A stretch of 64,000 nucleotides of DNA from an uncultured Clostridia bacterium (GTDB lineage: Bacteria > Bacillota > Clostridia > Saccharofermentanales > DTU023). The DNA lies in NCBI GenBank assembly GCA_946220865.1, contig CAMJYM010000007.1, positions 1,959-65,958 on the forward strand, read 5' to 3'. The translations under genes were made by a program, and so were the position numbers. The notes under the pieces are model-generated. The model was not told where the DNA came from. It saw only the letters and a list, made by a program, of their open reading frames with translations, and made no database searches. Shown here piece by piece: positions 2,662 to 34,660 of this stretch (position 1 is the first letter of the stretch; the number at the start of each line of letters is the position of its first letter).

Positions 2662-2979
2662 GCCCTTACTCCCATAAAAAATCGCTATTTCATTATAGCA
2701 GACTGCGCATGCTGCATCGGCTCGTGCTTCTTTCTTATCGCCGGATTTTTTCGCCCAGGTCACCAGCATCCTACACGATCTATCTCGCTCTACACTTTCG
2801 ACTTATATTGTCTCTACATTTTTATGCAAACTTATGCAAGAGTTTTTCATCTATGGATTTTAGGCTATAATAAAAACACGAAAGGAGCAGCTGGAAAGAA
2901 AAATTTTCAGTGGCTTCTTTTTCATCATCGGACGGTCGGCCACCAGGCCGACGGCGCTCGCTAGAAGGGAGCAAAAACT

Positions 2980-3519
2980 ATGAAAATTGATATCACTGGC
3001 GTTGACATGAAGGTTGCGGATTCGCTGCAGGAAAAAATCGAAAAGAAACTGGAAAAGTTTCACCGCTATTTCGGCGACGAGGCCAGCTGCCAGGTTAAAG
3101 TTCAGCCAGAGAAAAACAAACTCCGCGTCGAACTGACGCTGAAAATTCACCGCGATATCTACCGTGCTGAGGCATTGGGCGATCAGGCTCTTGACGCTCT
3201 GGACGAGGCCACGGACAATCTGGCAGGTCAGATCCGCAAGCACAAAGCGAAGCTCAAGAAGCGCAAACATCAAAGCAAAAACATGGAGGCCTTTATCTCT
3301 GCCCTGCCCGAAGAGGACAGCCTGAGCGAAGCTGACCTGCCCAAAATCAAACGCCGCAAGAGCTTCCCGATTGAAGCCATGGATGCCGAAGAAGCAGCCC
3401 TGCAGATGGAGATGATGGAACACGATTTTCATCTCTACATCAATCCGGAAAACGGGCGTGTCAACTGCGTCTATAAACGCCGCGACGGCAACTATGGCGT
3501 ACTGGAGCCTGAGTATTGA
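2980..3519 (+). CDS. hpf: ribosome hibernation promoting factor, long HPF/RaiA type
   Basis: 179 aa. N-terminus MKIDITGVDMKV...LEKF is typical of RaiA/HPF. The C-terminal dimerisation domain is present (DFHLYINPENGRVNCVYKRRDGNYGVLEP). RBS GGGAG precedes ATG 2980. Confidence 0.9.
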   Translation: MKIDITGVDMKVADSLQEKIEKKLEKFHRYFGDEASCQVKVQPEKNKLRVELTLKIHRDIYRAEALGDQALDALDEATDNLAGQIRKHKAKLKKRKHQSKNMEAFISALPEEDSLSEADLPKIKRRKSFPIEAMDAEEAALQMEMMEHDFHLYINPENGRVNCVYKRRDGNYGVLEPEY

Positions 3520-3604
3520 TCTTTTGAAGAGAGCGCTTTCAAGGTCTTTTCTTTAAAAATGCTCGTTCGTTATTACACTGGGCACACCAGCTTATATAAA
3601 ATCA

Positions 3605-3640
3605 CCGGGGCCGTCTCCAGAAGATGGCCCCGTTTCATTT
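3605..3640 (+). terminator. rho-independent terminator after hpf
   Basis: GGGGCC (3607-3612) pairs with GGCCCC (3626-3631) and is followed by a T-rich tract. Confidence 0.6.
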
Positions 3641-3772
3641 CCAGCTATCCGCCAGGAGAAAATCCCGTATATTGCGGTGTTTAATGCCCTGGCGGCTCAT
3701 GTCAGGCTCATCCATGGAAAAGACATACTTAGGGTAATGGTCGCGAATACGGTCATAAAAACCAAACTCCCG
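3635..3772 (-). pseudogene. 3-prime remnant (45 codons) of an AAA_14/DUF4143-type ATPase gene
   Basis: Minus-strand frame reads REFGFYDRIRDHYPKYVFSMDEPDMSRQGIKHRNIRDFLLADSWK-stop. This aligns with the C-terminus of the intact ATPase at 54857..56173 (RIPDSFRKIVVVKDYMKPWQDENGIQYIGIEDFLLDEKLL). It is preceded by an in-frame TAG at 3773-3775, and an AT-rich island starts just beyond. Confidence 0.6.
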
Positions 3773-3909
3773 CTAAGCGGCCTCCTTTTACCTGGTTTTG
3801 TATTGTTGCTATTTAAACTAAATCCATCTACCAAGTTAGTCAAATGTCCAAAGTTTAAATGAGTATGTTTACTAATTGACTCTATGCAAAGTAAATCTTC
3901 CAAAATTAA

Positions 3910-3921
3910 GAAAACGTTATC
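3910..3921. promoter_or_regulatory. candidate LacI-family operator, distal copy
   Basis: GAAAACGTTATC is a CG-centred pseudo-palindrome. It is the exact reverse complement of the site at 4051-4062. Confidence 0.4.
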
Positions 3922-4002
3922 TATTTTATATTTTTGTGATATAAGATTATTTTTAAGTCCATTTCACGTCTTTTAGGCATATATTTTATTAAAAATTGGC
4001 AA

Positions 4003-4032
4003 TTGACATAAAATCGACTGAATATATATAAT
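4003..4032 (+). promoter_or_regulatory. sigma-70-type promoter for the tctCBA island
   Basis: TTGACA at 4003-4008, an 18-nt spacer, then TATAAT at 4027-4032. Confidence 0.55.
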
Positions 4033-4050
4033 CTATCCAGAACATCTTGT

Positions 4051-4062
4051 GATAACGTTTTC
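4051..4062. promoter_or_regulatory. candidate LacI-family operator, promoter-proximal copy
   Basis: GATAACGTTTTC lies about 20 nt downstream of the -10 box. It has the form of LacI/CcpA-type operators (A/T-rich arms around a central CG). Confidence 0.45.
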
Positions 4063-4129
4063 TCTTTTATAGAGCCTAATGTTGATCGCAGGAAAGGATA
4101 ATACAAAACAGAAAGGTGTAGGTAAGTTC

Positions 4130-5260
4130 ATGAGTATTAAAAGAGTTCTCATTTGCTTTCTGGTATTTTCACTGATGTTTGGCGCAGTAGCCTGTAGTGG
4201 AGATCATGCCAAGAAACAAACAGCTCAAGAAACCAAAGAAAGTAGTACTGATACAAGTGCTCAGGATAAAACAAGTGTTCCTGAGGAAGTGTCTAAGGAT
4301 GATGTGAAAACAAAGAGCTCCAATTATCCAACTAAATCAATAAAGGTGATCGTTCCTTATGGGGCTGGAGGTACAACTGACTTAGTTGGTCGGCAACTTG
4401 CCATCCAACTTGAAAAACACTTAGGTCAATCCATCACTGTGGTCAATCAGGGTGGTGCCTCAGGCTCAGTAGGTTGTAAAACCGTGCTCGATGCCCCCAG
4501 CGATGGCTACACTCTACTTTTTACAGCTGAAAGCTTAGGTACACAGCGGGTCATGCAGCTTTCTGATATGAGTTACAATGATTTCAGACCCATCATGGTC
4601 ACTGTTAATGACCCCAAAGTTATTGTTGTCAATAAAAATAGTAAATATAAGACCCTGCAAGAGCTTGTTGATGATATTAAAGCACGTCCCGGTCAAGTGA
4701 AAATGTCCTATACTGGTCCTGGTGGCAGCGGTCACGTCCAATCCCTTATTTACGAAGCAGCAGGCTTAAAAACTGCGCTAACTGCATATACTAGCGGCAG
4801 TGATTGTATTGTTGCAGTCTTGGGCGATCAGGTGGATTTTACAAATTCTAATTATTCTTCCGTAGCTAACTATATCGATAGTGGTGAATTACGGCTTCTC
4901 GCCGTTTCATCCACGAAGCCCATCGCTAAATATCCCGATGTACCCACATTTGCCTCTATCGTCCCAGAAACAGCTGATGCCTTTGAAACACCCTTTACAC
5001 CGCTCTCTTTGCTCGTAAAAAAGGATGTTCCACAAGAAATCATTGATATTCTTCGTGACGCAGCTCAAAAAGCTATCCAAGAAGAAGATTGGAAAAAGTT
5101 TGTAAAAGATAATAGCCTTGAAGAGCTTTATCTCAAATTTAAAACTGAAGATGAAATGATGTCTTTCTATAAGAATTGGGAATCCAAAGTCAGCTGGATG
5201 TTGTTTGATGCTGGAGCGGCGCCCTTAAGTCCAGAAAAATTTGATATTCCTAAACCCTGA
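4130..5260 (+). CDS. tctC: tripartite tricarboxylate transporter substrate-binding lipoprotein (TctC/Bug family)
   Basis: ORF 4079..5260. Start placed at ATG 4130 (MSIKRVL) after a GGTG/AGG RBS. Lipobox GAVAC is present, and the IKVIVPYGAGGTTDLVGRQLA motif is typical of the Bug/TctC family. Confidence 0.8.
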   Translation: MSIKRVLICFLVFSLMFGAVACSGDHAKKQTAQETKESSTDTSAQDKTSVPEEVSKDDVKTKSSNYPTKSIKVIVPYGAGGTTDLVGRQLAIQLEKHLGQSITVVNQGGASGSVGCKTVLDAPSDGYTLLFTAESLGTQRVMQLSDMSYNDFRPIMVTVNDPKVIVVNKNSKYKTLQELVDDIKARPGQVKMSYTGPGGSGHVQSLIYEAAGLKTALTAYTSGSDCIVAVLGDQVDFTNSNYSSVANYIDSGELRLLAVSSTKPIAKYPDVPTFASIVPETADAFETPFTPLSLLVKKDVPQEIIDILRDAAQKAIQEEDWKKFVKDNSLEELYLKFKTEDEMMSFYKNWESKVSWMLFDAGAAPLSPEKFDIPKP

Positions 5261-5318
5261 TAATGATTTCTTTAGCCGGAGTGCCAGAAGCACTCCGGTG
5301 CCTCGAAAGGAGACGCTC

Positions 5319-5798
5319 TTGGAACATTTTAAGAAGCTGATAAAAAATAAAGCCATGCACGAAGCGATACTCTTTTTAATGATGAGCATCGGCTTGCTCA
5401 TCCATGCCTTAACAAAGCACTATGCGCAGTCTATGCCAGACTGGAAAATGTCGCCTTATCTTTTTCCTCTTCTGGTTTCATTCTTTTTATTTTTGCTCTC
5501 CATTTCGATGCTGGCAGATGCCCGTCGCACACTGAAAATTTCAGAGGAAGAAAAGCAGGATAAGGTAAGCCCCCAACCAATTTACTGGAAAAAAATACTG
5601 ATGGTTATCATTTTGAGCATCGCATATTATATGATCATGCCCCTGATAACTTTTATTCCCTCCACAATTCTTTTCCTTGTGCTTATGTTCTTATATTTGG
5701 GGGAAAGACGTCCCTTTATCATTAGTCTTATATCTGTTCTCACGGCTGGCACTTTATATGCTTTATTTGCCATGGGACTTAATGTGATGTTGCCCTAG
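5319..5798 (+). CDS. tctB: tripartite tricarboxylate transporter small membrane subunit (TctB-like)
   Basis: Small, 4-TM-like hydrophobic protein between tctC and tctA. The probable TTG start at 5319 lies 6 nt after AAGGAG. Start is uncertain (alternative ATG at 5355). Confidence 0.6.
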   Translation: MEHFKKLIKNKAMHEAILFLMMSIGLLIHALTKHYAQSMPDWKMSPYLFPLLVSFFLFLLSISMLADARRTLKISEEEKQDKVSPQPIYWKKILMVIILSIAYYMIMPLITFIPSTILFLVLMFLYLGERRPFIISLISVLTAGTLYALFAMGLNVMLP

Positions 5799-5807
5799 GA
5801 GGAAAGC

Positions 5808-7304
5808 ATGGACCAAATAATTGGCGTACTAAAATGGATGGTGACCCCAGAATTCATCCTTTTCACTTTTTTGGGTTCGTTAGCTGGGCTCTTTGTTGGT
5901 TCGATACCCGGTCTTTCAGTGACTATGGCCACTGCCTTGCTGGTATCTGTCACCTATAGTTGGCAAACTTCAAATGCTTTAGCCACAATTATGGGAGTTT
6001 ATGTTGTAGGCGTATATTCTGGCGCATTGTCTGCCATTTTAATCAATATTCCCGGAGCACCCTCTTCCGTAGTAACTACTTTGGATGGTTATCCTCTGGC
6101 AAAGAAAGGGGAGTCCTACAAAGCGCTTAAATACGCTACAATTTATTCTTTTGTCGGCTCATTCTTTGGCCTCTTAGTCTTATGGATTGCTGCAAAACCC
6201 GTAACTAATCTAGCCCTAAAATTCACCCCAATGGATTACTTTCTCTTGGCTCTGTTTGGTCTTGCAACCGTTGGTTCTCTGACAACCAAGAGTTTTTCTA
6301 AGGGTTTAATTAGTGCCGTACTCGGATTGATGCTAAGTATGGTCGGTATTGATAGTGTCGTAGGGACTCCTCGTCTAACTTTTGGACTCCAGGAATTAAA
6401 CAGCGGTATCAGTATCGTACCTGCTCTAGTCGGCCTTTTTGGTTTCTCTGAAGTGCTTTATGTCATCTCCAACGGTACCGCTGACGGTGAAGTTGCAAAA
6501 ATTGTGAGGAGTGTCGTCAAGACCAAAGATATCCTAAAACACTTCTTTGTCTCATTATATTACTGTGTTATTGGGACCTTTGTTGGCGCTCTGCCTGGCG
6601 CTGGTGGACCCGTAGCTGCCTTCCTCGCTTATTCTGAAGCCAGAAGAATCAACAAGAAACCTTCAGTCCCCTTTGGTGAAGGTGCCGTAGAGGGAATTGT
6701 GGCGAGTGAATCTGCCAATAACGCCTGTATCGGCGGCGCCCTTATTCCGATGTTAACATTAGCCATCCCTGGCGATGCCGTGACGGCCATTATCCTTTCT
6801 GTCTTTTATGTTCACGGCTTACGTCCTGGACCCATGTTTTTGATGGAAAGTCCAGATATGTTTCAGATGATCCTTGCAGGCGGATTTTTAGGATGTTTAT
6901 TTTTGCTGCTCCTGGGCACTCTGGTAGCTCCTCGTGTCAGTAAGATCATCAATATTCCGAAAAACCTATTGCTACCTGTTGTCACTGTACTCTGTGTTAT
7001 TGGCGCATTCGCTGGTAATAATCGTATGTTTGATGTAGCTCTTATGTTTATGCTCGGGATTATCGGCTACTTCATGCGCCGTCGTGGTTACTCCGTTGCT
7101 CCTATGACTTTAGCCTTAGTTCTTGGTAATATGATGGATTCAAATTTCCGCAGAGCAATTTCTCTTGCGTCCTCAGAATCCAATAAAATGGCTGCTCTGT
7201 TTGGTCGCCCCATTACCCTGATTCTTCTATTTCTCACCGTCATCACTGTGACATTAAACATCCCTGCCGTAAAACGCAGTTTAGCAAAAATAAAAAATCA
7301 CTGA
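5808..7304 (+). CDS. tctA: tripartite tricarboxylate transporter large permease (TctA family)
   Basis: 498-aa polytopic membrane protein with TctA-like organisation (GSIPGLS..., PGAGGPVAAFLAYSEA). RBS AGGAGG precedes ATG 5808. Confidence 0.85.
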   Translation: MDQIIGVLKWMVTPEFILFTFLGSLAGLFVGSIPGLSVTMATALLVSVTYSWQTSNALATIMGVYVVGVYSGALSAILINIPGAPSSVVTTLDGYPLAKKGESYKALKYATIYSFVGSFFGLLVLWIAAKPVTNLALKFTPMDYFLLALFGLATVGSLTTKSFSKGLISAVLGLMLSMVGIDSVVGTPRLTFGLQELNSGISIVPALVGLFGFSEVLYVISNGTADGEVAKIVRSVVKTKDILKHFFVSLYYCVIGTFVGALPGAGGPVAAFLAYSEARRINKKPSVPFGEGAVEGIVASESANNACIGGALIPMLTLAIPGDAVTAIILSVFYVHGLRPGPMFLMESPDMFQMILAGGFLGCLFLLLLGTLVAPRVSKIINIPKNLLLPVVTVLCVIGAFAGNNRMFDVALMFMLGIIGYFMRRRGYSVAPMTLALVLGNMMDSNFRRAISLASSESNKMAALFGRPITLILLFLTVITVTLNIPAVKRSLAKIKNH

Positions 7305-22964: not shown

Positions 22965-24128
22965 TTAGACAAACTCCAGCATCACCTGGTTGGCCAAATC
23001 GAGGCCCAACTCCGAAAGGGCCAGCCCTTCAGGCGTTTTTTGCAGGAGGCCGCGCTCCTGAAGCCGGGAAAACGCACCTGCAAAGCGCAGCTGCGGCTCC
23101 TCGCCGAAGCGTTCATGATAGGCCTTAAAAGAGAGGCCTTCCGTCAGGCGAAAACGCAGCATGACATATTCTGCCTGCTCGGAGGCTCTGTCGATTTTTT
23201 CGTCTTCGATGGCAGCGGCATGTGCCTGAGTTTCCCCGGCGGCCAGCACTTTTTGCTCCCAGAGTTCAAAATCTTCTGGGTTATGTCGGCGAACGCTCGC
23301 TGTATAAGAGGCCGCGGCAGGTCCGAAGGCATAGTAAGGCAGGGCATTCCAATAGACGAGATTGTGTCGTGAGGCAAAACCCGGACGGGCGGCATTGGAG
23401 ATTTCGTAGGGAAAAAGCCCGCTTTGGCTCAGGCGGCGGCGCAGGCTGTGATACATGGCGCGTTCTTCGTCTTCGCCAGGCAGTTCAGAGGAATCGCGGG
23501 CCATTTCTGCGGCCAGGGGGGTACCTTCTTCAAGCTGCAGGGAATAGAAACTCAGGTGCTCGAGCTGAAACTGCAGCAGCCATTCGACTTCTTCGGCGAA
23601 GGATTCCAGGCTCTGACCGGGCAGAGCGAAGATCAGGTCCGAAGAAATGTTGTCGAAGCCGGCTTCACGCGCCGCACGAAGGGACTCAGCGAAGTCTTCA
23701 CGGGTATGAATGCGGCCCAATCGCTGTAAAAGGCGATTGTCTGCGGATTGCAGGCCGAGGCTGAGACGGTTAAAACCCATCTGTCGCAGGGCGGGGAGTC
23801 TGACGGGAAGGTTTTTGGCGGGATTGGCTTCCAGAGTGATTTCCGCTTCCGCGTCAAAAGAGAAACTGCGGCGCAGCGTGTCCATGATTTCTTCGAGGGC
23901 AGAGAGCGGCAGAAAACTTGGCGTACCCCCGCCAAAATAGCAGCTCTTCAGGGGAGCTGTCGTGCCATTTTGTTGCACAGTAGCTGCTGCTTCGGCGCGA
24001 ATTTCCAGGCAGACGGCCTGGGTGTAACGCTGGAAGGCCTCTGCCCTGGGCCGCAGGCTGTAAAAATCGCAGTAACTGCAGCGGGAAGCGCAGAAAGGCA
24101 CATGGATATAAGCGGCCGTCGGAATCAT
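22965..24128 (-). CDS. hemW: radical SAM heme chaperone HemW (HemN-like)
   Basis: CASRCSYCDF radical-SAM cluster motif and a HemN C-terminal domain. It occupies the usual position upstream of hrcA. Confidence 0.9.
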   Translation of the reverse strand: MIPTAAYIHVPFCASRCSYCDFYSLRPRAEAFQRYTQAVCLEIRAEAAATVQQNGTTAPLKSCYFGGGTPSFLPLSALEEIMDTLRRSFSFDAEAEITLEANPAKNLPVRLPALRQMGFNRLSLGLQSADNRLLQRLGRIHTREDFAESLRAAREAGFDNISSDLIFALPGQSLESFAEEVEWLLQFQLEHLSFYSLQLEEGTPLAAEMARDSSELPGEDEERAMYHSLRRRLSQSGLFPYEISNAARPGFASRHNLVYWNALPYYAFGPAAASYTASVRRHNPEDFELWEQKVLAAGETQAHAAAIEDEKIDRASEQAEYVMLRFRLTEGLSFKAYHERFGEEPQLRFAGAFSRLQERGLLQKTPEGLALSELGLDLANQVMLEFV

Positions 24129-24952
24129 ACTTCGTCCTGCTTCGAAGTCTGTTTTGCAGCGCGTCCTGACCTGTCGTTCTCGGCGGCAAGGCGAACGATA
24201 CTGCGAAAACGATCCAGAAAGTTCTTAAGACTGGGCGATTGATTGCGCTCAGGATCAAGCCAGGGAGCGATGGATTCTGCCCATTTGGCTTTGAATATGC
24301 CCACGGCAGGATAGCCGAGATGGGCAAGTTCCCGCCCTTTCTCCCGACCTTCAATAATTTGTGCTAAAAGCTCCCAGGTCCCGCAGACGCTGTCCTGAGA
24401 GTAGGTTTTCAAGAGGCTTGTATCCGCTTCTGGAAAGGCCTGACGAATGGCAAGAGGATCGCCCAGCAGCCAGGCCTCCATCTCTTCGACGGATATGCCG
24501 ATCACAAAGAAATTCTCCGGTGCACAGTGACGAATAAGCGCCTCGATCTTCTGGTAGAGACGATCTTTATCATCATCGTCTGAATCCAGAACCACGCAGA
24601 CGATCAGCGCTTCGTCCCGATCGAGATGCGAATAAGCTCTGAGCTTTGCCGGGAGAAGATTGAGCAGGCCGCTGCGGCTATACTCCGGTTTTTCAAAAAG
24701 GTTCGCAGGAATATAACCCTTGCCGCGATGGGGATGAATGTCGAGAACAATCCCATTGCAGGAAAGCTGATGCTCGCTCTTTTCCGGGACACCCGGCCAT
24801 AAAGCGAAGCCCTTCGCTCCGGCAGTTGATTCTGCTCCAGCTCGGACGGCTGCGGGAAAAAGAGCTTCGTGGCCGAAGAAAAGAATATCCCCCAGTATTT
24901 TTTTCAGAACCCTGACTGAAGACTTATCTTCACAAAGAACTTCTATGCGCAT
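24125..24952 (-). CDS. DUF4276-family (Toprim-like) protein, partner of the upstream ATPase
   Basis: Start set at ATG 24952 (MRIEVLCEDKSS). The track ORF extends to a TTG at 25081 inside the ATPase gene. The protein has an acidic first strand IEVLCED, VVLDSDDDD, and EEMEAWLLGD containing the EAW motif I recall as the DUF4276 hallmark. The junction to the ATPase gene is TGAGATG, and the stop overlaps the hemW start as ATGA. Confidence 0.6.
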   Translation of the reverse strand: MRIEVLCEDKSSVRVLKKILGDILFFGHEALFPAAVRAGAESTAGAKGFALWPGVPEKSEHQLSCNGIVLDIHPHRGKGYIPANLFEKPEYSRSGLLNLLPAKLRAYSHLDRDEALIVCVVLDSDDDDKDRLYQKIEALIRHCAPENFFVIGISVEEMEAWLLGDPLAIRQAFPEADTSLLKTYSQDSVCGTWELLAQIIEGREKGRELAHLGYPAVGIFKAKWAESIAPWLDPERNQSPSLKNFLDRFRSIVRLAAENDRSGRAAKQTSKQDEV

Positions 24953-24953
24953 C

Positions 24954-26192
24954 TCAGTTGACACCCAGATGGCCGCCGTACCAAAGCATCCCCATGTTGA
25001 TGCCTTCTTTATACATCTGACGGACAATCTCATCCTGCGCCAGGGAGCGCACTTGAATCTGTCCATCGCTCTTGCGCTCAAAGGCCCAGACCTCTTCCGG
25101 ACTCAAAGCCTCGAGCACCGAACTGTTGTGAGTGGTGAGAAAAATCTGCGCCCCCTTTTGCTCCAGAACATAGTGGCGCATGGCCTGCATCAGAGCTTCA
25201 ACCATATCGTGATAAAGGCCGTTATCAGGCTCGTCGATACAGATCAGAGCACGCGGATCTTCGAGCAAAAGCAACATGGCAAAAAGTCTCAGATTCCCTG
25301 AGGAAATACCCTGATCCAGAAACGCATCACCGACTTTCTTGTAGTCAGGAACCTGGTCCAGAATACGCGAGAGCAACTTTTCGTAGGCTTTAGGATCTTC
25401 CTTCTCCCGATAATTCAAGACATTACGCAAATTATCCATGCGCTCGTTGAGATGTTTATGCCCGCCCTTTTCTTTCGCTAAAAGGCCATTATCTGGCATC
25501 TCCGCCGGGTGGCAGACAAAGCTGCTCGTAAGCTGCAGATAAAGCCAGCAGAGATCCTTGTACTGGAGCATGCGTCCATAGAGCGAGAGGGCTGGAACCT
25601 TTTCGTCCAAAAGCTGTACTTCGTCATCGCCAAAGCGTTCTGAACTCACATGGCCTTTTCCCTCACAGACAGAAAGGAGTTCTTTTTCTCCCTCAGAGCT
25701 GAGCTGGCGCACCGTTTCTTCATAAATAAAGGGGCGGCTGTGTTTATCTCTGTTCATGCTGATATGGTAGTGAAGATACTGCTCCGGACGTCGTTCATAA
25801 ATGAAGTCAAAGACCATATCTTTTTTCTCAGAAGGCCCTTCGACTGCAGTTCTGCTATCTTCCGGAAATGCGCGCGGGATTCGGCTTTCCAAACTCCAGC
25901 TTTCCCCCTCCTGAAATGGCAGCTGGCGCGTGTGAAGGCGGGCAAAACCTCCGCGCTGGCCGCTGCTGGAGGCATGGGGGAGACCAAAGAGCAAGGCATC
26001 GCGGATAAAACTGATGCTGCCAAGGAAAGCGCTTTTACCCGTCCCATTTCGGCCGATAAAACAACTGAGGGCGCTTAGACCTCCTGTCATTTTTTCTTTT
26101 CTCTGTAAAGCCGCCTGAATTTCTTCGGACGTTGGTCCGATCGTCACATCTTTGAGAATACCGAACTGCTCAATATGAATCGAACGAAGCAT
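24954..26192 (-). CDS. ABC/SMC-like AAA ATPase (AAA_15/AAA_21 type)
   Basis: Walker A GRNGTGKS, signature-like SSGNLRLF, Walker B LICIDEPDNGLY and H-loop TTHN. About 270 aa are inserted between Walker A and the signature, as in OLD/AriA/PtuA-type ATPases. Confidence 0.75.
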   Translation of the reverse strand: MLRSIHIEQFGILKDVTIGPTSEEIQAALQRKEKMTGGLSALSCFIGRNGTGKSAFLGSISFIRDALLFGLPHASSSGQRGGFARLHTRQLPFQEGESWSLESRIPRAFPEDSRTAVEGPSEKKDMVFDFIYERRPEQYLHYHISMNRDKHSRPFIYEETVRQLSSEGEKELLSVCEGKGHVSSERFGDDEVQLLDEKVPALSLYGRMLQYKDLCWLYLQLTSSFVCHPAEMPDNGLLAKEKGGHKHLNERMDNLRNVLNYREKEDPKAYEKLLSRILDQVPDYKKVGDAFLDQGISSGNLRLFAMLLLLEDPRALICIDEPDNGLYHDMVEALMQAMRHYVLEQKGAQIFLTTHNSSVLEALSPEEVWAFERKSDGQIQVRSLAQDEIVRQMYKEGINMGMLWYGGHLGVN

Positions 26193-26239: not shown

Positions 26240-27325
26240 TTAAATCTTGGAGAAAGCAGAAGGCTCAAAGTGATGCCCTGACAGGGGGTCGTCAGCCGAC
26301 TGCGTGAGTTTGCGCTCTTCTTCTTCGGGTCTCCATTTTTCTTCTATGGGGGACACCGCCTCCGTTTTTTCTGCGACCTGATCGGGAGAAAAATGAGGAT
26401 CTGTAATCATTTCCTTAATAGAGACGGCAGCTGAAGCAATGCCTTGCATGTTTGAAGGAATAATAATCTTGGTCGCACGGCCGTCAGCAACCTTGGTCAG
26501 GGCTTCAAGCCCTTTCAGGGCGATAAGGCTCTTATCCGCACGTACGTCCTTAACCATGGCGAGACCCTTGGCCGTAGCTTCCTGCACCTTGAGGATGGCC
26601 TGAGCCTGACCTTCGGCCACTCGAATGGCCTGTTCCTTTTTGGCTTCGGCGCGCAGAATAGCCGCCTCTTTTTCACCTTCAGCCACACGGATGGCTGCTT
26701 CCTTCTGCCCCTCAGCGCGCAGAATATTTTCGCGTTTTTCACGCTCCGCTTTCATCTGCCGCTCCATGGCGGTCTGAATTTCTTTCGGCGGAATGATGTT
26801 TTTCAGTTCGACTCGATTGACTTTAATGCCCCAGGGATCTGTGGCAATATCCAGGGTTTCCCGCATTCTCGTGTTGATGACATCGCGGGAAGTCAGCGTT
26901 TCGTCGAGTTCAAGGTCGCCGATGATGTTACGCAGGGTTGTTGCCGAAAGATTTTCGATAGCCGAAATAGGATTCTCAATGCCGTAGGTGTAGAGCTTAG
27001 GATCGACAATCTGGTAAAACACTACGGTGTCGATCTGCATGGTGACATTATCCTTGGTGATCACAGCCTGCGGCTCAAAATCCGCCACTTTTTCTTTCAG
27101 CGAGATGTTTTTGATCACTTTATCAATAAACGGCACCTTCATATGGAGGCCGGTGTCCCAGGTGGCTTTGTAGGTTCCCAGCCGCTCAATGATGAAATTG
27201 TGGGCCTGAGGCACAACACGAATATTGCGGATGAGGATAATCAGAAGCACGAGGGCGAGAAAAATAAGGGCGATAAGAGAACCGATGCGATTCTCAGGAA
27301 AACCGTTTTGAATGCTAAGAAACAT
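26240..27325 (-). CDS. SPFH/Band 7 (stomatin/flotillin-like) membrane protein
   Basis: N-terminal TM followed by a PHB/SPFH core (VPQAHNFIIERLGTYKATWDTGLH) and an Ala/Glu-rich repeat region AEREKRENILRAEGQKEAAIRVAEG. Confidence 0.9.
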   Translation of the reverse strand: MFLSIQNGFPENRIGSLIALIFLALVLLIILIRNIRVVPQAHNFIIERLGTYKATWDTGLHMKVPFIDKVIKNISLKEKVADFEPQAVITKDNVTMQIDTVVFYQIVDPKLYTYGIENPISAIENLSATTLRNIIGDLELDETLTSRDVINTRMRETLDIATDPWGIKVNRVELKNIIPPKEIQTAMERQMKAEREKRENILRAEGQKEAAIRVAEGEKEAAILRAEAKKEQAIRVAEGQAQAILKVQEATAKGLAMVKDVRADKSLIALKGLEALTKVADGRATKIIIPSNMQGIASAAVSIKEMITDPHFSPDQVAEKTEAVSPIEEKWRPEEEERKLTQSADDPLSGHHFEPSAFSKI

Positions 27326-27476: not shown

Positions 27477-27929
27477 TTAAGAAGCTGGCGCAGGGTCTGT
27501 GGGTCGAACCACTGCTTTAACACCATGGATGGCCAACACTCTGACCGTTGCGCCTTCCGGAATGCTGCTCTGCCCATCCTCCGCAATGGCCGACCATATC
27601 TGTCCCAGAACTTCGATCTGCCCGGCCTTTTTGAGTGGCAGTATTTCTTTGATGACGCGGCCCTCTTCTCCGATAATGCGATCGGCATTAGTGGATACCG
27701 GGCGTTTGCTCAAGGGGGCCATTCGCGGTTTGAAAACGAGGATAAACAGCAGCAGACAGACGACCGAGACAAGGAAAAAGATCAGCAACTGCAACCAGAG
27801 TTCCACGTCCAGGAAATTGGCTATCAGAGAGGCCAGCGCGCCAGCCGCAAACCAGATGGTTGTCATGTTGACGGTCGCTGCTTCAGCAATCAGAAAAAGT
27901 ATGATAAGGACCAACCAGATTATCCACAT
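27477..27929 (-). CDS. NfeD-family membrane protein (short form)
   Basis: Start at ATG 27929 (MWIIWLVLIILF), sharing one base with the upstream stop (TAATG). Two to three TM helices precede an OB-fold-like C-terminus (GEEGRVIKEILPLKKAGQIEVLGQIWSA). Confidence 0.8.
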   Translation of the reverse strand: MWIIWLVLIILFLIAEAATVNMTTIWFAAGALASLIANFLDVELWLQLLIFFLVSVVCLLLFILVFKPRMAPLSKRPVSTNADRIIGEEGRVIKEILPLKKAGQIEVLGQIWSAIAEDGQSSIPEGATVRVLAIHGVKAVVRPTDPAPAS

Positions 27930-29326
27930 TATGAAAGCTCCTTTGCTCCTTTGGCCACGGTTCCCGGCGGAACATTGCGGCAAAGCTGATCGAGAATAAA
28001 AGTGAGATTATTGATGCGAATTTCCAGGCGATCCGCCTCGCTCAGATAATCGTCCTGGCTGCTCTCCGCTGCCAAACTCTGACGCTCTTCGCTGAGCGGA
28101 CTTGTTTCTTCTGAACGACCGAAGCGGTCGCGATTCTTCTGCTGCTTTTCAGAGACGAAATAGTTGAGAAGGCGGTCGCTGCTGTCAAAACCGCTGCCGG
28201 CAATCATACCATTCACAGAGGCAAAAAAGGGATCATTGCTCTCTTTAACCGGGCTGTCACATTGCTCAATATCATAGTCGCCAGAGTCAAAAAAGACGAT
28301 GGGTATCCCCAGCTGATCGAAGGGACTGTAATCACTTTTCTTTTCTGTCCACTCGCGGTAAATGCACTTTCCCACGCCTGCCAATTCCTTTTCGCAGCCC
28401 GCCTGATTGGTATAGAGGGCAAAGCCGTTGCGGGTCAGCAGCAGGTTATCGTAGTAGACATCGGTACACTCGTAGAGTTTGCGGCGCAAAGCGTATTTTT
28501 TCTTTTCTCCGCTCTCTACAGAATTTTGACCTGCATGAGCATACACCTTGTCCCCTGCATAAATGGAATCTAAAACGACAAGCGCATCAATTTTTTCACG
28601 CTCAGCAGGACTCAGCTGATCGGCTGCAAACTTTGCCCCAGCAAAATCAGCATGTCCCGCGCCAAAAAAGACGATGGTCACATCGTAGGCGGCCGGCTTC
28701 ACCGCCAGAAGCCGGGCGGTCTGCAAAAGGACGCCGAGGGCTGCAGCGTTATCGTCGATGCCATCACTTTGAGCCAATTTAGGCAGGTTAGGATCACTGG
28801 CCACAGGATTTCCCTCTTCATCGACCTCCGCCGTCTGAGCTTCCTGATCTTTTTCTTCCGCCTGCGCACGGCTGTAAAGGGTGTCATAGTGTGCGCCGAG
28901 AATAAGTCGCCGCCCTTCCAGATCAGCAGGATGCTGCATTTCGGCGCTTTGAGCCATAAGCTCGTCATTCTGCGACTCTACAGGCTTAAAACCTTTTCCT
29001 TTAATCGTAGCCAGAACATTCTGTGAGCTTTTCCCGCCCACTTGAAAGCTCTGCATCTCGACCTGCAGACCCAGGTGTTCAAGTTCCGCTTTAAGCCACT
29101 CGGCCAGAGCCTTTTCTTCAGGGGACCCAGGGGCGCGGAAAGGAAAGTTCTGTACGATGTCCAGACTGCTCTTGCGTCCTCCGCCACCATAACGGGCCAC
29201 CGTAAGTGGAGCTCTTTCGCCCCTCTGAAGGACAGAGCAGGAAGATAGAGCAAAACTCTGGGTAAGCAGGCAAAAGCCAAGCAGCAGAAGGCTGAAAAAT
29301 CTTTTCGGGCACGACGTGGTTTTCAT
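27929..29326 (-). CDS. M28-family peptidase-like lipoprotein
   Basis: Signal peptide and lipobox (ALSSC), then LILGAHYDT and GIDDNAAALGVLLQTARLL as in M28 aminopeptidases. The usual EE catalytic/ligand pair appears replaced (FFGAGHADFAGA). Confidence 0.65.
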   Translation of the reverse strand: MKTTSCPKRFFSLLLLGFCLLTQSFALSSCSVLQRGERAPLTVARYGGGGRKSSLDIVQNFPFRAPGSPEEKALAEWLKAELEHLGLQVEMQSFQVGGKSSQNVLATIKGKGFKPVESQNDELMAQSAEMQHPADLEGRRLILGAHYDTLYSRAQAEEKDQEAQTAEVDEEGNPVASDPNLPKLAQSDGIDDNAAALGVLLQTARLLAVKPAAYDVTIVFFGAGHADFAGAKFAADQLSPAEREKIDALVVLDSIYAGDKVYAHAGQNSVESGEKKKYALRRKLYECTDVYYDNLLLTRNGFALYTNQAGCEKELAGVGKCIYREWTEKKSDYSPFDQLGIPIVFFDSGDYDIEQCDSPVKESNDPFFASVNGMIAGSGFDSSDRLLNYFVSEKQQKNRDRFGRSEETSPLSEERQSLAAESSQDDYLSEADRLEIRINNLTFILDQLCRNVPPGTVAKGAKELS

Positions 29327-29329
29327 GTC

Positions 29330-29875
29330 TTAAATTTTATCCTTTCCCCCTCCGAAAGAAAAGTGCGCCGACAAGGGCTCACTGAGCTGGAGAGGCTCGC
29401 CCTTCTCTTTAAGAATTTCCGCCTTCAGGCGCAGAAGATCCATTGGAAAAGCCAGAGCCGCCGCAAGTTGCTCCAGGCTGTAACCCTGCTGTGCATAATC
29501 CAGAAAACTTTCATCTGAAATCAGCAGCTCAGCAGCAAAGAGATTCGCCTCAAGCTCCGGGCGACTGCTCATATCTAAAAACATGTGGTCGCGGATGAGA
29601 ATCTGTTTTTCGGCGAGTTCACGGTGCAGCTGATCATGACCCAGCTCATGGGCCAGGATCAGTTTTTTTTCCTCTTCGCTGAGGCTGTCCTTGTAGAAAA
29701 TACAAGGACGTCCTTCCACCACGGCATACATCCCCTTCAGCTGTTGGAAATTTGAGCGTGGATAGAGCGCGATGCCCAAATTTTTGCAAAGTTGCTCCAC
29801 ATCGCGTGTTCCCCAGAAAGCAAGAAGCTTCCGGACAGCTGCTTCCGCCCTTTGAATTGCTCTCCGCTGAGCCAT
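29330..29875 (-). CDS. ImmA/IrrE-family metallopeptidase
   Basis: 181 aa with the HEXXH motif HELGHDQLH. It lies immediately downstream of an XRE repressor gene. Confidence 0.8.
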   Translation of the reverse strand: MAQRRAIQRAEAAVRKLLAFWGTRDVEQLCKNLGIALYPRSNFQQLKGMYAVVEGRPCIFYKDSLSEEEKKLILAHELGHDQLHRELAEKQILIRDHMFLDMSSRPELEANLFAAELLISDESFLDYAQQGYSLEQLAAALAFPMDLLRLKAEILKEKGEPLQLSEPLSAHFSFGGGKDKI

Positions 29876-29896
29876 AAAAAGAACTTCCCGCCCAGA

Positions 29897-30271
29897 CTAA
29901 TACTTTTTTTCGCGCGAATTGCGCCGTCCGTCCCAGTAAGCCTGCTGTATCGCTTCCATGGCCGCATCGCGGTCTTCTTCGCTCAGGCGTCCGCCTGCAA
30001 ACATGGCTGAAAGCTCTTTGACCAGACGATCAGCGTCACGCGCATCCTGCGTCTCATGGCCTGCAGCAGATTCCTCTCCGTTCGAGAGCAGATAATCTGC
30101 AGAGACATGGAGAAGTTCTGCCAGCCGCGCCACAACCGAAGCCTGGCGGGGATAGCAGCGCCCTGTTTCATAATTGATCAGACTGCGCGTTGATACACCA
30201 AGTTGCGCGGCCAGCTCTTTCTGCGTGAGATTATTACGAATACGAAGATCTCTGACTTTTGAACCGAACAC
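29897..30271 (-). CDS. XRE-family HTH transcriptional regulator
   Basis: LRIRNNLTQKELAAQLGVSTRSLINYETG is a Cro/C1-type HTH. GTG start follows GGGAGA. Confidence 0.85.
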   Translation of the reverse strand: MFGSKVRDLRIRNNLTQKELAAQLGVSTRSLINYETGRCYPRQASVVARLAELLHVSADYLLSNGEESAAGHETQDARDADRLVKELSAMFAGGRLSEEDRDAAMEAIQQAYWDGRRNSREKKY

Positions 30272-30318
30272 CTTTTTTCTCCCGTCATCAAAGCCTTAAG
30301 CAAGGCATTAAGCAATAA

Positions 30319-30380
30319 GTTTCAGTTGACAATGAAACTATTTGCACCTATGCTGTGCAACAGAGGTGAAAGTACTTTCA
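30319..30380 (+). promoter_or_regulatory. dinB promoter with two palindromic operator candidates
   Basis: GTTTCA-GTTGACAA-TGAAAC (30319-30338) embeds a TTGACA -35 box (30326-30331). TATGCT follows 17 nt downstream (30349-30354). The perfect 14-bp palindrome TGAAAGTACTTTCA sits at 30367-30380. Confidence 0.5.
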
Positions 30381-30486
30381 TTTGTGAGCACAGTATATCC
30401 CGCCCAACACAGTGGGGTCAAGGGAAAAAGATTTTATCTGAAATGATTTTAAAGACTTGATTTGAGCTGATTTTGAGGAGGCCTCT

Positions 30487-31923
30487 ATGGGTGAATTTAT
30501 TCCTGCCAAGACGAGCGTCAGGTGGTCTTCAGCAGCTGCGCTCACAGACATCGCAGGCGCAGGCAGAGCAGGTATAGGCCCATGTATCACAGGCACAGGC
30601 GCAGTGAGCAGCAGTTCAGACACCGCCGGCGCAGATGCAGCGAATAGAGGCTCAGACAAGCTCCGTTGCAAGGCCCCTCGCCTGGGCATCCTGCACTGTG
30701 ATATGAATGCCTACTATGCTTCTGTCGAGCAAGTCCTGAACCCAGCCCTTAAAGGTCTGCCCATGGCCGTTTGCGGCTCGGTAGAGGACCGTCACGGAAT
30801 TGTGCTGGCCAAGTCACAGGAAGCTAAAATCCAGGGGGTCAAAACCGGCGAGACTATCTGGCAGGCGCAGAGCAAATGTCCCCAGCTCCACATCGTGCCT
30901 CCTCACTATGAAGCTTATGTGCATTATTCCAAACGGGCACGGGCCATTTACGCTGAGGTCAGCAATCAGGTCGAGCCCTTTGGCCTCGATGAATGCTGGC
31001 TGGATGTACGGGGAAGCCGCCAGCTCTTTGGCTCTCCCGAAGAGATCGCCGAGCTGCTGCGGCAGCGTATCAAGCGGGAACTGGGTCTGACTATTTCCGT
31101 GGGCGTCAGTATCAACAAGGTCTTTGCCAAACTCGGCAGCGACATGAAAAAACCTGATGCGGTCACCGTCCTGCTCAGCGAAGACATTCCCGACAAAGTC
31201 TGGAACTTGCCGGTCGAAGATCTTCTGGGCGTCGGCCCCGCAACCAAACGAAAGCTCAATCTCTGGGGCATCAGTACCATCGGTCAGCTCGCCCACGCCC
31301 CGGCAGAACTTCTGCAGCGCCGCCTCGGCATCAACGGCTATCGGCTCTGGCGCTGGGCTAACGGCTGGGATGACGGGCGCGTGCGTGTGCTGGGCGAGAG
31401 CGGACCCGTCAGGAGTATCGGGCACAGTCTTACCCTGCGTCACGATCTCGTCAGTAAAGAAAGCCTCTGGCCGGTTTTCCTGGCCCTTGCCCAGAATGTT
31501 GGTCTGCGTCTACGGAGCGGCGGTTTTCGTGCAGGTGGTGTGCAAATCAGCCTGCGCGACCAGAACTTCTTTCAGGAAGAATTTCAGACGCCGCTGCCCT
31601 ACCCCAGCCACAGCAGCGTGTATCTTGCACGCTGCGCCTATAAACTCTTCACCTGCATGAGTGAGATGCCGGTCCCCCTCAGAGCCGTGGGCATCCGTGC
31701 CATCCAGCTCATTCCCCTGGAACAGCCGCTGCAGCTGAACTTTTTTTCGGATGCCCGGGAGCTGGAGCGCCTGGAGAAAATTGAGGACTGTATTTACAAC
31801 CTGCGCGGGCGCTTTGGCGAAAAGAGCGTAAGCTGGGCTGTGCTTCAGCGCGACCTTGACTTTGCCGAACAAACCCCCGACGAAATCCATCCTCCGGGTC
31901 TGCCGGTCTTCGGGCCGAACTAA
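30487..31923 (+). CDS. dinB: DNA polymerase IV (Y-family) with an N-terminal low-complexity extension
   Basis: ILHCDMNAYYASVEQ and SVGVSINKVFAKLGSDMKKPD are Y-family motifs. The only RBS-backed start (GAGGAGG, ATG 30487) adds about 70 Gly/Ala/Ser-rich residues upstream of the catalytic core. Confidence 0.85.
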   Translation: MGEFIPAKTSVRWSSAAALTDIAGAGRAGIGPCITGTGAVSSSSDTAGADAANRGSDKLRCKAPRLGILHCDMNAYYASVEQVLNPALKGLPMAVCGSVEDRHGIVLAKSQEAKIQGVKTGETIWQAQSKCPQLHIVPPHYEAYVHYSKRARAIYAEVSNQVEPFGLDECWLDVRGSRQLFGSPEEIAELLRQRIKRELGLTISVGVSINKVFAKLGSDMKKPDAVTVLLSEDIPDKVWNLPVEDLLGVGPATKRKLNLWGISTIGQLAHAPAELLQRRLGINGYRLWRWANGWDDGRVRVLGESGPVRSIGHSLTLRHDLVSKESLWPVFLALAQNVGLRLRSGGFRAGGVQISLRDQNFFQEEFQTPLPYPSHSSVYLARCAYKLFTCMSEMPVPLRAVGIRAIQLIPLEQPLQLNFFSDARELERLEKIEDCIYNLRGRFGEKSVSWAVLQRDLDFAEQTPDEIHPPGLPVFGPN

Positions 31924-33370: not shown

Positions 33371-34660
33371 ATGCAGTCTGAAAAAGCAGCCCTGAAATTC
33401 GGTGTGGCCACCGCTTCCGCTCAGATCGAAGGCGGAGCAGTCGGTTCCAACTGGAACCATTATTCCGACGCCGGTAAAATCCGCGATCACAGCAATATCC
33501 GGAGAGCCACCGACCACTGGAATCGTTACGAAGAAGACATTGAGCTTTTAGATGAGCTGGGCATCCGCACTTACCGCATGAGCGTGGAGTGGGCCCGCAT
33601 AGAGCCTCAGGAGGGACAATGGAACCCCGAGGCCATCGCCCATTACCGCCGGGAAATTCAGCTCATGCGGGACAGGGGCATCGAAGTTCTGCTGACCCTC
33701 TATCACTTCAGCCATCCCCAGTGGTTCGAAGATCGCGGAGCTTTTGCATGAAAAGAAAACATCCCCATTTTCCTGCGTTTTGTCGAATATACGGTAGAAG
33801 CGCTCGGCGACCTGATTCCCGCCTACTGTACGCTCAACGAACCGAATGTCTACGCCGTCAACTGTTTTCTCTTTGGCGAGTGGCTGAACGAGGAGAAAAA
33901 ACTTTTTAAGACACTGCGAGTCATGAGTATCTTCGCCTCCATCCACCTGCTCAGCTATACAAAAATCCACGAAATTTATCGGCGTCACCAGTGGGGCGAG
34001 GTCAAGATCAGCCTGGCCCTGCACCTGCGCTGTTTCACCCCGGAAAAGGATAATTTTATCGACCGTGCAGGCGCCAAACTTTACGACCGACTCTTTCAAA
34101 GCGACTTTTTCCGCGCCATCACCAGCGGCCGCTTTCCCTTTCCTCTGCGAAATTTCAGCGGACTTAAAAGCGGCTGCTACCTGGACGCTATTGCCATCAA
34201 TTATTATTCAAGGGGCATGGTCCATGCTTTTCGCCACTACGATCAAAAGGGCGTGCCGCACAATGATCTGGGCTGGGAAATCTACCCTGAAGGCCTCATC
34301 CGCTCTGCCGAAAGCCTCTACAACATTTGTCCCCTGCCCATCATGATTACCGAAAACGGCTGCTGCGATCAGGACGACCGCTTCCGGCCCCGCTTCATCT
34401 ACGAGCACGTACGACTGCTCGAAGAGTCCGCCCTCCCCATCACCCACTATTATCACTGGTGTTTCGTCGATAATTTTGAATGGAAAGAAGGCGAGCGTCC
34501 CCGCTTCGGCCTCGTCGCCTGCGATTATGAAACGCAGAAGCGCAGCCTCAAGAAAAGTGCGCTGATGTATCGCGAGCTCATCCTCCAGGGCGGCACAAGC
34601 CAGGACATCTATGAAACCTACGTCCAGAGCTTAGAATATCCCATGGACGAGCCGGACTAA
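33371..34660 (+). pseudogene. GH1 beta-glucosidase/6-phospho-beta-glucosidase interrupted by one in-frame TGA
   Basis: ORFs 33371..33751 and 33923..34660 are in the same frame. Reading through the TGA at 33749-33751 gives a continuous 429-codon GH1 with TLNEP (acid/base) and ITENG (nucleophile) intact. Confidence 0.8.

Follow-up and report, generated by a model that had tools for sequence, protein, structure and literature searches.

A repressor–metallopeptidase gene pair divergent from a Y-family DNA polymerase gene: a predicted self-contained DNA-damage switch of Clostridia

The 64,000-nt stretch of DNA analysed here (the window) comes from an uncultured Clostridia bacterium (assembly GCA_946220865.1, contig CAMJYM010000007.1, positions 1,959 to 65,958) and carries, at 29330–31923, a trio of genes in which a repressor and a metallopeptidase are transcribed away from a translesion polymerase. 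The XRE-family repressor gene (29897–30271, minus strand) encodes 124 amino acids (aa) from a GTG start and matches the Pfam families HTH_31, HTH_19 and HTH_3. It comes first, and is followed after 21 nt on the same strand by a gene (29330–29875) for a 181-aa ImmA/IrrE-type M78 zinc metallopeptidase (Peptidase_M78, PF06114, 2.4e-16), referred to here as ImmA. The divergent gene (30487–31923, plus strand) encodes a Y-family, Pol IV-like translesion polymerase of 478 aa with IMS, IMS_HHH and IMS_C domains, and 215 bp (30272–30486) separate it from the pair. An earlier reading of the same DNA, made from the letters and the open reading frames alone (the sequence-only reading), had placed the three frames and the 21-nt gap, had recognised the protease gene by its HEXXH motif, and had described the pair as transcribed away from dinB across 215 bp with a promoter and palindromes. 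The coordinates and gap were confirmed, the motif is intact, and the palindromes were found together with two promoters. The surrounding genes are those of a core chromosome (hrcA-grpE-dnaK-dnaJ, the glycine cleavage genes gcv, gap and a PcrA/UvrD helicase gene), no recombinase genes were found among the neighbouring window genes scanned, and many metagenome assemblies hold the same species with identical gene order.

The intergenic region contains two predicted promoters that face each other. PdinB, the polymerase promoter (30326–30354, plus strand), consists of TTGACA (30326–30331) and TATGCT (30349–30354) with a 17-nt spacer. Pxre, the promoter of the XRE-ImmA operon (30392–30421, minus strand), consists of TTGACC (30421–30416) and TATACT (30397–30392) with an 18-nt spacer, and is homologous to a 'TTTGTCAAGAGG' element conserved in most trio loci. 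Three operator-like dyads accompany these promoters, each of 14 bp in a 5-4-5 form of the TGAAA-N4-TTTCA type. O1 (30311–30324, AGCAA-TAAG-TTTCA) ends 1 base upstream of the PdinB -35 box and O2 (30333–30346, TGAAA-CTAT-TTGCA) lies within the PdinB spacer. O3 (30367–30380) is a perfect palindrome, TGAAA-GTAC-TTTCA, placed between the two -10 boxes and therefore downstream of both transcription starts, which are predicted near 30361 on the plus strand and near 30385 on the minus strand. The pattern TGMAW-N4-WTKCA occurs twice in the 215-bp intergenic region and once in the other 63.8 kb, with 2.5 occurrences per 64 kb expected by chance. Variation within the species was assessed on ten contigs, which form roughly two haplotype groups; none of 11 intergenic polymorphisms fell within the 70 operator and promoter positions ((145/215)^11, P ~0.013). 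From the sequence and position of the dyads, XRE would bind O1 to O3 at the promoters of the polymerase gene and of its own operon.

Related loci, designated by L-numbers, were collected from both sides of the trio. Scanning one genome per species with an ImmA alignment yielded 80 loci, all from Clostridia, at 35–48% identity, and XRE lay directly upstream of ImmA in about 74 of the 80 species. A Y-family polymerase gene was divergent from the pair and adjacent to it in 35 of these 80 species; it was Pol IV-like in 29 loci and of a second type (~450–500 aa) in 6. In another 12 loci a Y-family polymerase gene lay elsewhere within 6 kb, and 4 loci were cut off. A metagenome scan with a polymerase alignment likewise yielded 80 loci, at 43–55% identity, and 68 of them included at least 1.2 kb of upstream DNA. 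XRE and ImmA were divergent upstream in 43 of the 68, one of the two was present in 7, and neither in 18. The adjacency of pair and polymerase is conserved far above chance, which answers the check on phyletic co-occurrence that the sequence-only reading had put forward. The closest relatives found were L091, L093 and L011, whose ImmA proteins are 65%, 55% and 48% identical to that of the window.

When the trio loci were aligned on the polymerase -35 box, one common plan of face-to-face promoters and 14-bp dyads emerged. A TTGACA-17-TATAAT-like pair was found on the repressor side, in the same place, in 25 of 25 aligned trio loci, and a reverse-complement -10 box together with 'TTTGTCAAGAGG' as the -35 box makes up the repressor promoter, the 'TTTGTCAAGAGG' element often overlapping the polymerase ribosome-binding site. 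The dyads, again of the 5-4-5 form, lie upstream of the -35 box, in the spacer and after the -10 box. Their half-sites are TGAA[AT] or TGCAA in the window's clade, L019 and L058, CGCAA in L055, CACAT in L021, and CGAA[AC] in L014, L024, L025, L029, L045 and L082. The position of O1 is occupied by TGCAATAAGTTGCA in L011 and by AGAAACTATTTGCA in L093, and in O3 the string GTGAA.....TTTCA is shared without change by the window, L091, L093 and L011. Sites of one locus resemble each other: the spacer site agreed with the downstream region of the same locus at a mean of 8.09 of 10 arm positions, against 7.12 for other loci, a likeness reached in none of 20,000 permutations made without correction for base composition; the upstream site behaved likewise. 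The recognition helix also changes with the half-site, in few independent events, RSLINYE occurring with TG.. and RT[IL]QNYE with CG.. half-sites. The likeness of sites within a locus, this pairing of helix and half-site, the invariance of O3 and the freedom of the operators from polymorphism speak for a factor that is encoded at the locus itself and evolves along with its sites. The regulatory layout is thus conserved and the dyad sequence is lineage-specific.

The relation of the pair to LexA was examined by counting perfect LexA cores (GAAC-N4-GTTC) within 260 nt upstream of the polymerase. None was found at the 50 polymerase loci with XRE, ImmA or both, as against 8 of the 18 loci with neither (Fisher p = 5.9e-6). 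The LexA boxes of the pair-less polymerases are mostly GAACAAATGTTC, and lie in or beside the promoter. In the window itself, 30272–30486 contains no match to the Cheo box CGAAC-N4-GTTCG at up to two mismatches, and the check for SOS boxes that the sequence-only reading had suggested, run on the whole 64 kb, returned no perfect GAAC-N4-GTTC. Since the pair and the LexA box exclude one another upstream of the gene, they appear to be alternative regulators of one polymerase family, and on this comparative evidence the pair would act in LexA's place at the present gene. The sequence-only reading had gone on to propose a LexA-independent damage switch on a translesion polymerase. Its comparative side was upheld by the 0 of 50 against 8 of 18, by the conserved adjacency and by the operators at PdinB, while the damage response itself is a step that we only infer.

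Both proteins of the pair have the features of known repressor–protease partners. In an alignment of 30 homologues, residues H76, E77, H80, H84, E107 and E109 of ImmA are invariant, so the active site is taken to be intact. Profile searches with ImmA returned CapP and IrrE, with CapP (7t5t) as the best Protein Data Bank (PDB) profile match, and its best PADLOC match was capP, over profile positions 6–131 of 242 only. The AlphaFold2 (AF2) model of ImmA has a pLDDT (predicted local distance difference test score) of 89.5, and its best fold matches were PprI, crystallised with single-stranded DNA (ssDNA; 8sln), and IrrE (3dte). These matches cover ~156 columns, which correspond to the protease and the following helical domain of PprI and IrrE chains of 240–248 residues; a protein of 181 aa, with ~156 columns already used, has no room for a GAF domain. 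The best PDB sequence match of XRE was the DNA-binding domain of ICEBs1 ImmR (7t8i, helix-turn-helix (HTH) only, E = 6e-5) and its best PADLOC match was capH (1.8e-10). Its model has a confident HTH at residues 1–62, a disordered linker at 63–75 and helices at 76–92 and 98–123, with fold matches to SinR, the N-terminal domains of CapH and ImmR, and DdrO, the last of these aligned with the repressor model from end to end. In the loop between the two C-terminal helices F91 is invariant and A92, G93 and G94 are at least 90% conserved. The XRE gene shows 4 synonymous changes and 1 non-synonymous change within the species, and no S24 domain was found in the domain scan of the trio genes. DdrO is cut at L106/R107 and ImmR at F95/M96, in both cases in the loop joining the last two helices (PMC6868357), and by this analogy the scissile bond of XRE is predicted to lie in the FAGG loop, within F91–L96.

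We propose that the pair forms a self-contained DNA-damage switch, which keeps both the polymerase gene and its own genes repressed until cleavage after damage inactivates it, and we place the probability of this reading at roughly 0.6. XRE, presumably as dimers, would bind O1, O2 and O3, sites which flank the -35 box, fill the spacer and sit just past the polymerase start, and also past the facing Pxre start. With dyads placed in this way at both promoters, the polymerase gene and the xre-immA operon would be held down in undamaged cells. Upon damage, by analogy with ImmR/ImmA, DdrO/IrrE and CapH/CapP, the zinc protease ImmA would cut XRE between its last two helices, near the LFAGG motif. 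Cleavage would break the dimer and release both promoters, and fresh synthesis of repressor would then reset the switch. Confidence is higher for repression of the polymerase gene and of the pair itself by XRE through the dyads than for cleavage by ImmA after damage.

Downstream of ImmA on the minus strand lie genes for an M28 lipoprotein peptidase (27929–29326), an NfeD protein (27477–27929) and an SPFH protein (26240–27325), all identified by Pfam. That the pair heads a very tight gene string, as the sequence-only reading had stated, was borne out: only 3 nt separate the ImmA stop from the M28 start, and the stop codon of M28 shares bases with the start codon of NfeD (TAATG). A candidate defence pair, HEC-01A/B, consisting of an AAA_21 ATPase of 412 aa and a DUF4276 protein (24125–26192, minus strand; PADLOC 3.4e-67 and 7.7e-58), follows ~3 kb downstream of ImmA, co-directional with it and directly before hemN. 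No convincing intergenic terminator was found in this string. The order polymerase, XRE, ImmA, M28, NfeD is kept in L091, L093 and L011; SPFH comes next in L011 and L093, L091 instead having a gene without a Pfam record, and L093 also has the HEC-01 pair and hemN. This synteny of ImmA, M28, NfeD and SPFH is confined to the closest clade (L011, L091 and L093), the genes after ImmA vary elsewhere, and the HEC-01 pair does not accompany XRE-ImmA across species. The M28, NfeD and SPFH genes may be co-transcribed with the pair; their membership in the switch is uncertain, and they are not part of the conserved module.

Many of the related loci lie amid serine recombinases, a tyrosine integrase and small sigma-like proteins. 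One form is a cassette that encodes a Zn-ribbon protein, a second M78-like protein of 245 aa, an 86-aa protein and a Pol IV-like polymerase, with XRE and ImmA in divergent orientation. It is shared by nine species, drawn from different genera, at 96–97% DNA identity over up to 3.6 kb (L026, at 2900–6500, L032, L033, L034, L041, L042, L044, L049 and L064), which suggests recent horizontal transfer. The 86-aa protein (c4) has only a weak match to SepQ (E = 0.008), below the cut-off of that family. The same gene order is annotated, under generic names only, in Monoglobus pectinilyticus (NZ_OY725736.1, 460216–463963; L101), and the trio is present in 21 of 80 IMG/VR loci. The copy in the window is a chromosomally settled version of the module. 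The second, distant type of Y-family polymerase, with the N-terminus 'IAIDLKSFYASVEC', stands next to related XRE-ImmA pairs, being divergent in L030, L061, L062, L067, L070 and L085 and downstream of ImmA in L027, L040, L043, L047, L054, L063, L071, L073, L074 and L090. At several loci it is accompanied by a partner of 130–144 aa (c6), which has no Pfam match at 0.01 and whose RAAQFSPFAAL motif appears YolD-like by eye.

The recombinases, integrase and sigma-like proteins around many related loci, the near-identity of the 3.6-kb cassette across nine species and the IMG/VR occurrences would also suit a pair that is the leftover of an ImmR/ImmA-type immunity module from a decayed element or prophage, without function for the host, the polymerase being common cargo. 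We hold this to be unlikely. The window copy lies in a core chromosome with no recombinase among the neighbours scanned, and four species keep the block in synteny at ImmA identities of 48–65%. The catalytic residues are intact, synonymous changes outnumber non-synonymous ones 4:1 in XRE, and the operators are free of polymorphism. The dyads moreover overlap the polymerase promoter itself, so the polymerase would be the controlled gene even on mobile elements. This overlap also bears on another possibility, that the pair controls, in the manner of CapH/CapP, only itself and the co-directional M28, NfeD and SPFH genes, perhaps with HEC-01, and that the polymerase is controlled otherwise. The best PADLOC matches to capH and capP, HEC-01A/B 3 kb downstream on the same strand, the very tight spacing with no clear terminator and the retention of the string in L093 and L091 all speak for such an arrangement. 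Over 80 species, however, the downstream genes differ and the link to the polymerase persists. Known pairs of the CapH/CapP type are divergent from the operon that they control, a position held here by the polymerase gene; PdinB has its -35 box bracketed and its spacer filled by O1 and O2, and no LexA box is available for the polymerase. Control of the downstream genes alone is therefore considered improbable.

ImmA might also act without proteolysis, either within a toxin–antitoxin-like module or as an anti-repressor that blocks XRE oligomerisation. COG2856/XRE pairs, which are widespread according to reviews, often lie in predicted operons with toxin genes, and some COG2856 partners are anti-repressors that work without cleavage, such as Rir/Crh (PMC6868357). 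A Brucella ZnMP/HTH-Xre pair is reported to have been studied as a putative toxin–antitoxin system (PMC10538038). Within the clade, nevertheless, neither the HEXXH motif nor the Glu residues downstream of it vary, the XRE loop carries a near-invariant motif where ImmR and DdrO are cut, and a switch accounts better than a toxin for the repressor-first order and the conserved link to a damage-tolerance gene. A non-proteolytic pair is accordingly judged unlikely; the anti-repressor examples remain a point against the damage switch proposed here.

Several further observations weigh against that proposal. DNA binding by XRE, its cleavage, the inducing signal and the induction of the polymerase are all steps that we infer. 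There is no polymerase gene nearby in 29 of the 80 ImmA loci (~36%). The permutation test on the dyads took no account of base composition, and the pairing of helix and half-site goes back to few independent events. By fold comparison of the AF2 model and by PADLOC profile, ImmA lacks the GAF domain. As regards LexA, the CGAA[AC]-N4-GTTCG dyads of L014, L024, L025, L029, L045 and L082 come near the Firmicute Cheo box, and among the 29 genome trio loci L024, and only L024, has a perfect GAAC-N4-GTTC core (CGAACaaaaGTTCG, 58 nt into its intergenic stretch), so dual control by LexA and XRE is possible there. Either the XRE proteins of these lineages bind a look-alike of the LexA box, or LexA and XRE share control. 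Support for LexA independence is comparative, and the claim concerns this promoter rather than an absence of lexA from the organism or a role of RecA; damage activation of ICEBs1 ImmA is RecA-dependent (bioRxiv 10.1101/2022.04.27.489752).

A wider interpretation can be offered as a tentative one, and we regard it as somewhat doubtful. In it, the trio would be a module for 'portable SOS mutagenesis' that is common among gut Clostridia, moves horizontally and has displaced LexA control of a whole Y-family polymerase subfamily, with damage sensed by a short, GAF-less ImmA. The operators that mimic the LexA box in some lineages could then allow elements carrying the module to tune or hijack host damage-induced mutagenesis.

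The polymerase was compared with its homologues in sequence. IMS (2.6e-43) begins only at residue 68–71, and IMS_C matches at 2.4e-15. The best NCBIfam match is the Pol IV subfamily model PRK03103 at 332.9 bits, below its cut-off of 381, and the UmuC model scores 103.9 bits; the subfamily was left unassigned because of the cut-off. The catalytic D72 lies in 'ILHCDMNAYYASVE', the motif GLDECWLD is present, QLNFF resembles a clamp motif, and the core residues D5 and D101-E102 are invariant in 14 polymerase homologues. Before this core stands a Gly/Ala/Ser-rich extension, with A, G and S making up 31 of 67 residues. Comparison with relatives locates it as an in-frame insertion of codons 5–67 (30499–30687, plus strand): the N-terminus of the L091 polymerase reads 'MCCMMNSGEFGILHCDMN' (aligned stretch 'SGEFGILHCDMN'), as against MGEF, 63 extra residues and GILHCDMN in the window. 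Judged from this alignment, the extension is a 63-residue in-frame insertion just after the ancestral start. The polymerases of the closest relatives have 412–421 aa, compared with 478 aa in the window. The polymerase match starts at core residue 67–68 in 27 of the 29 trio loci, and the distance from this residue to the XRE start is 135–234 nt in those 27 loci except L012, compared with 416 nt in the window.

Among the ten contigs the extension carries 8 non-synonymous and 2 synonymous differences, with 5.0% of its sites variable (5.1% in intergenic DNA), as opposed to 5 non-synonymous and 15 synonymous differences and 1.6% variable sites in the polymerase core. Its reading frame is intact in all ten. 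ATG 30487, which the sequence-only reading had given as the only start supported by a ribosome-binding site, is preceded by GAGGAGG (30475–30481, plus strand) at a distance of 5 nt. The only other canonical in-frame start before Asp72 is the GTG at codon 40, so some of the extension would be translated if the enzyme is made. An alternative start that omits the extension was rejected, as only GTG codon 40 is available and a start at ATG codon 73 would delete the catalytic Asp. An origin as a repeat, a mobile insertion or a tandem expansion was also rejected, Tandem Repeats Finder having returned nothing and no second copy being present in the window or in the related loci collected up to that point; no Rfam match was found for the extension. 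The extra segment noted in the sequence-only reading is present as an open reading frame. As a feature of the system it did not stand, since the relatives have 412–421 aa and it evolves like non-coding DNA; it is most simply a species-specific, unconstrained tail, probably disordered and functionally neutral.

The 126-nt leader of the polymerase contains two 24-nt tandem direct repeats (30427–30474, plus strand) that are 79% identical. They fall within lineage-specific extra sequence that is absent from the relatives and are polymorphic in the species, with four adjacent changes at 30430–30433 and another at 30462. An RNA element in the leader was considered and rejected (no Rfam match at E up to 1; folding z = -0.53 against shuffles).

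Within the 64 kb, a regulon extending beyond the polymerase was considered on account of the dyad TGCAAACTTATGCA (2825–2838), which lies between a PcrA/UvrD helicase gene (115–2769, minus strand) and an HPF gene (2980–3516, plus strand). The dyad was not taken as support for one: no counterpart was found upstream of pcrA in three relatives, which included the species of L093. The comparison is weakened by the inversion of HPF in the window relative to the relatives. The dyad is taken as a chance match, since it is absent in the three relatives and one extra match is within expectation. In the same region, a 190-aa open reading frame (2860–3432, minus strand) matches nothing in Pfam and runs antisense to the HPF gene; the latter is 53% identical to the HPF gene of L097, and the antisense frame is regarded as spurious. 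Downstream of the polymerase, a GH1 gene is split in the window into parts of 126 aa (33371–33751) and 245 aa (33923–34660, both plus strand), and likewise in L001, L004 and L006; further strains of the species, L002 and L003 among them, have it intact at 429 aa.

The kind of system proposed here, a damage switch made of a repressor and a metalloprotease, is already known from ImmR/ImmA, DdrO/IrrE and CapH/CapP. ImmR/ImmA of B. subtilis ICEBs1, like the phi105 repressor system, has the same arrangement of an XRE protein of ~125 aa followed by a GAF-less M78 protease of ~170–180 aa, and responds to damage without LexA cleavage. It controls excision and transfer genes of a mobile element, whereas the pair in the window would control a single polymerase gene in a core chromosome. 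The ImmR loop is acidic and has 15 residues, in contrast to the short LFAGGR loop of the window XRE, and identity is low. In DdrO/IrrE of Deinococcus an XRE protein is likewise teamed with an M78 protease, and DNA-repair genes are freed from repression upon damage without the involvement of SOS. Unlike the 181-aa protease of the window, IrrE possesses a GAF-like third domain, and the ddrO and irrE genes are not known to be adjacent in Deinococcus. The DdrO regulon is held together by a shared motif, RDRM, unlike the present case, in which two of the three pattern matches of 64 kb are in one intergenic region, and IrrE is not known to be autoregulated along with its substrate.

CapH/CapP, to which the best PADLOC matches of the pair belong, also combines an HTH repressor with an M78 peptidase, divergent upstream of the target operon. 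Pairs of this type lie upstream of and divergent from the operon that they control, and are induced by DNA damage (bioRxiv 10.1101/2022.04.27.489752). At its C-terminus CapP carries a GAF domain; it also has a cysteine-switch loop, and ssDNA in the groove between its domains activates it. The window protease, with its match to profile positions 6–131 of 242 and its 181 aa, has neither this GAF domain nor the ssDNA groove, and the divergent gene encodes a Y-family polymerase and not an anti-phage system. With its GAF-less protease the pair has the architecture of ImmA, and with its divergent position it has the placement of CapH/CapP.

Control by LexA in the SOS response, as of yqjW and uvrX in B. 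subtilis, has the same output, a damage-inducible error-prone polymerase, and pair-less homologues of the window polymerase carry canonical GAACAAATGTTC boxes. The locus studied here differs in having no LexA box, and in pairing XRE with a separate metalloprotease in place of a self-cleaving S24 serine peptidase. In the HdiR-UmuC cassettes of streptococci a local XRE-type repressor is also divergent from a Y-family gene and regulates itself, and HdiR has its own S24 self-cleavage domain. The protease of the present pair is by contrast a separate M78 metallopeptidase, with no S24 domain. An Enterococcus plasmid also carries a Y-family polymerase gene, alongside which no XRE or ImmA gene is annotated. 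A full-text literature search turned up no experimental work on the control of a Y-family polymerase by such a pair, the one relevant item being a contextual note in a 2013 comparative-genomics paper, which linked the peptidase to DinB by gene neighbourhood and proposed an SOS-linked proteolytic step. The part of that paper concerned with this link is a few sentences long and does not treat a repressor partner, the operator and promoter architecture, the relation to LexA boxes or the mobile cassettes. The comparison adds the conserved face-to-face plan of promoters and operators, the change of operators together with the repressor, the mobile cassettes and the mutual exclusion with LexA boxes.

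Mutation under stress, by which antibiotic resistance among other traits can arise, is driven by error-prone polymerases, whose textbook regulator is LexA. If the proposal is correct, a large group of gut Clostridia would govern one such polymerase by a different, locally encoded repressor–protease pair, which also moves between genera on mobile elements, and a DNA-repair output would be added to the family of damage switches that comprises ImmR/ImmA, DdrO/IrrE and CapH/CapP. With two genes and one promoter, the locus would offer a simple system in which to study how a GAF-less ImmA senses damage, and Monoglobus pectinilyticus is a cultured carrier.

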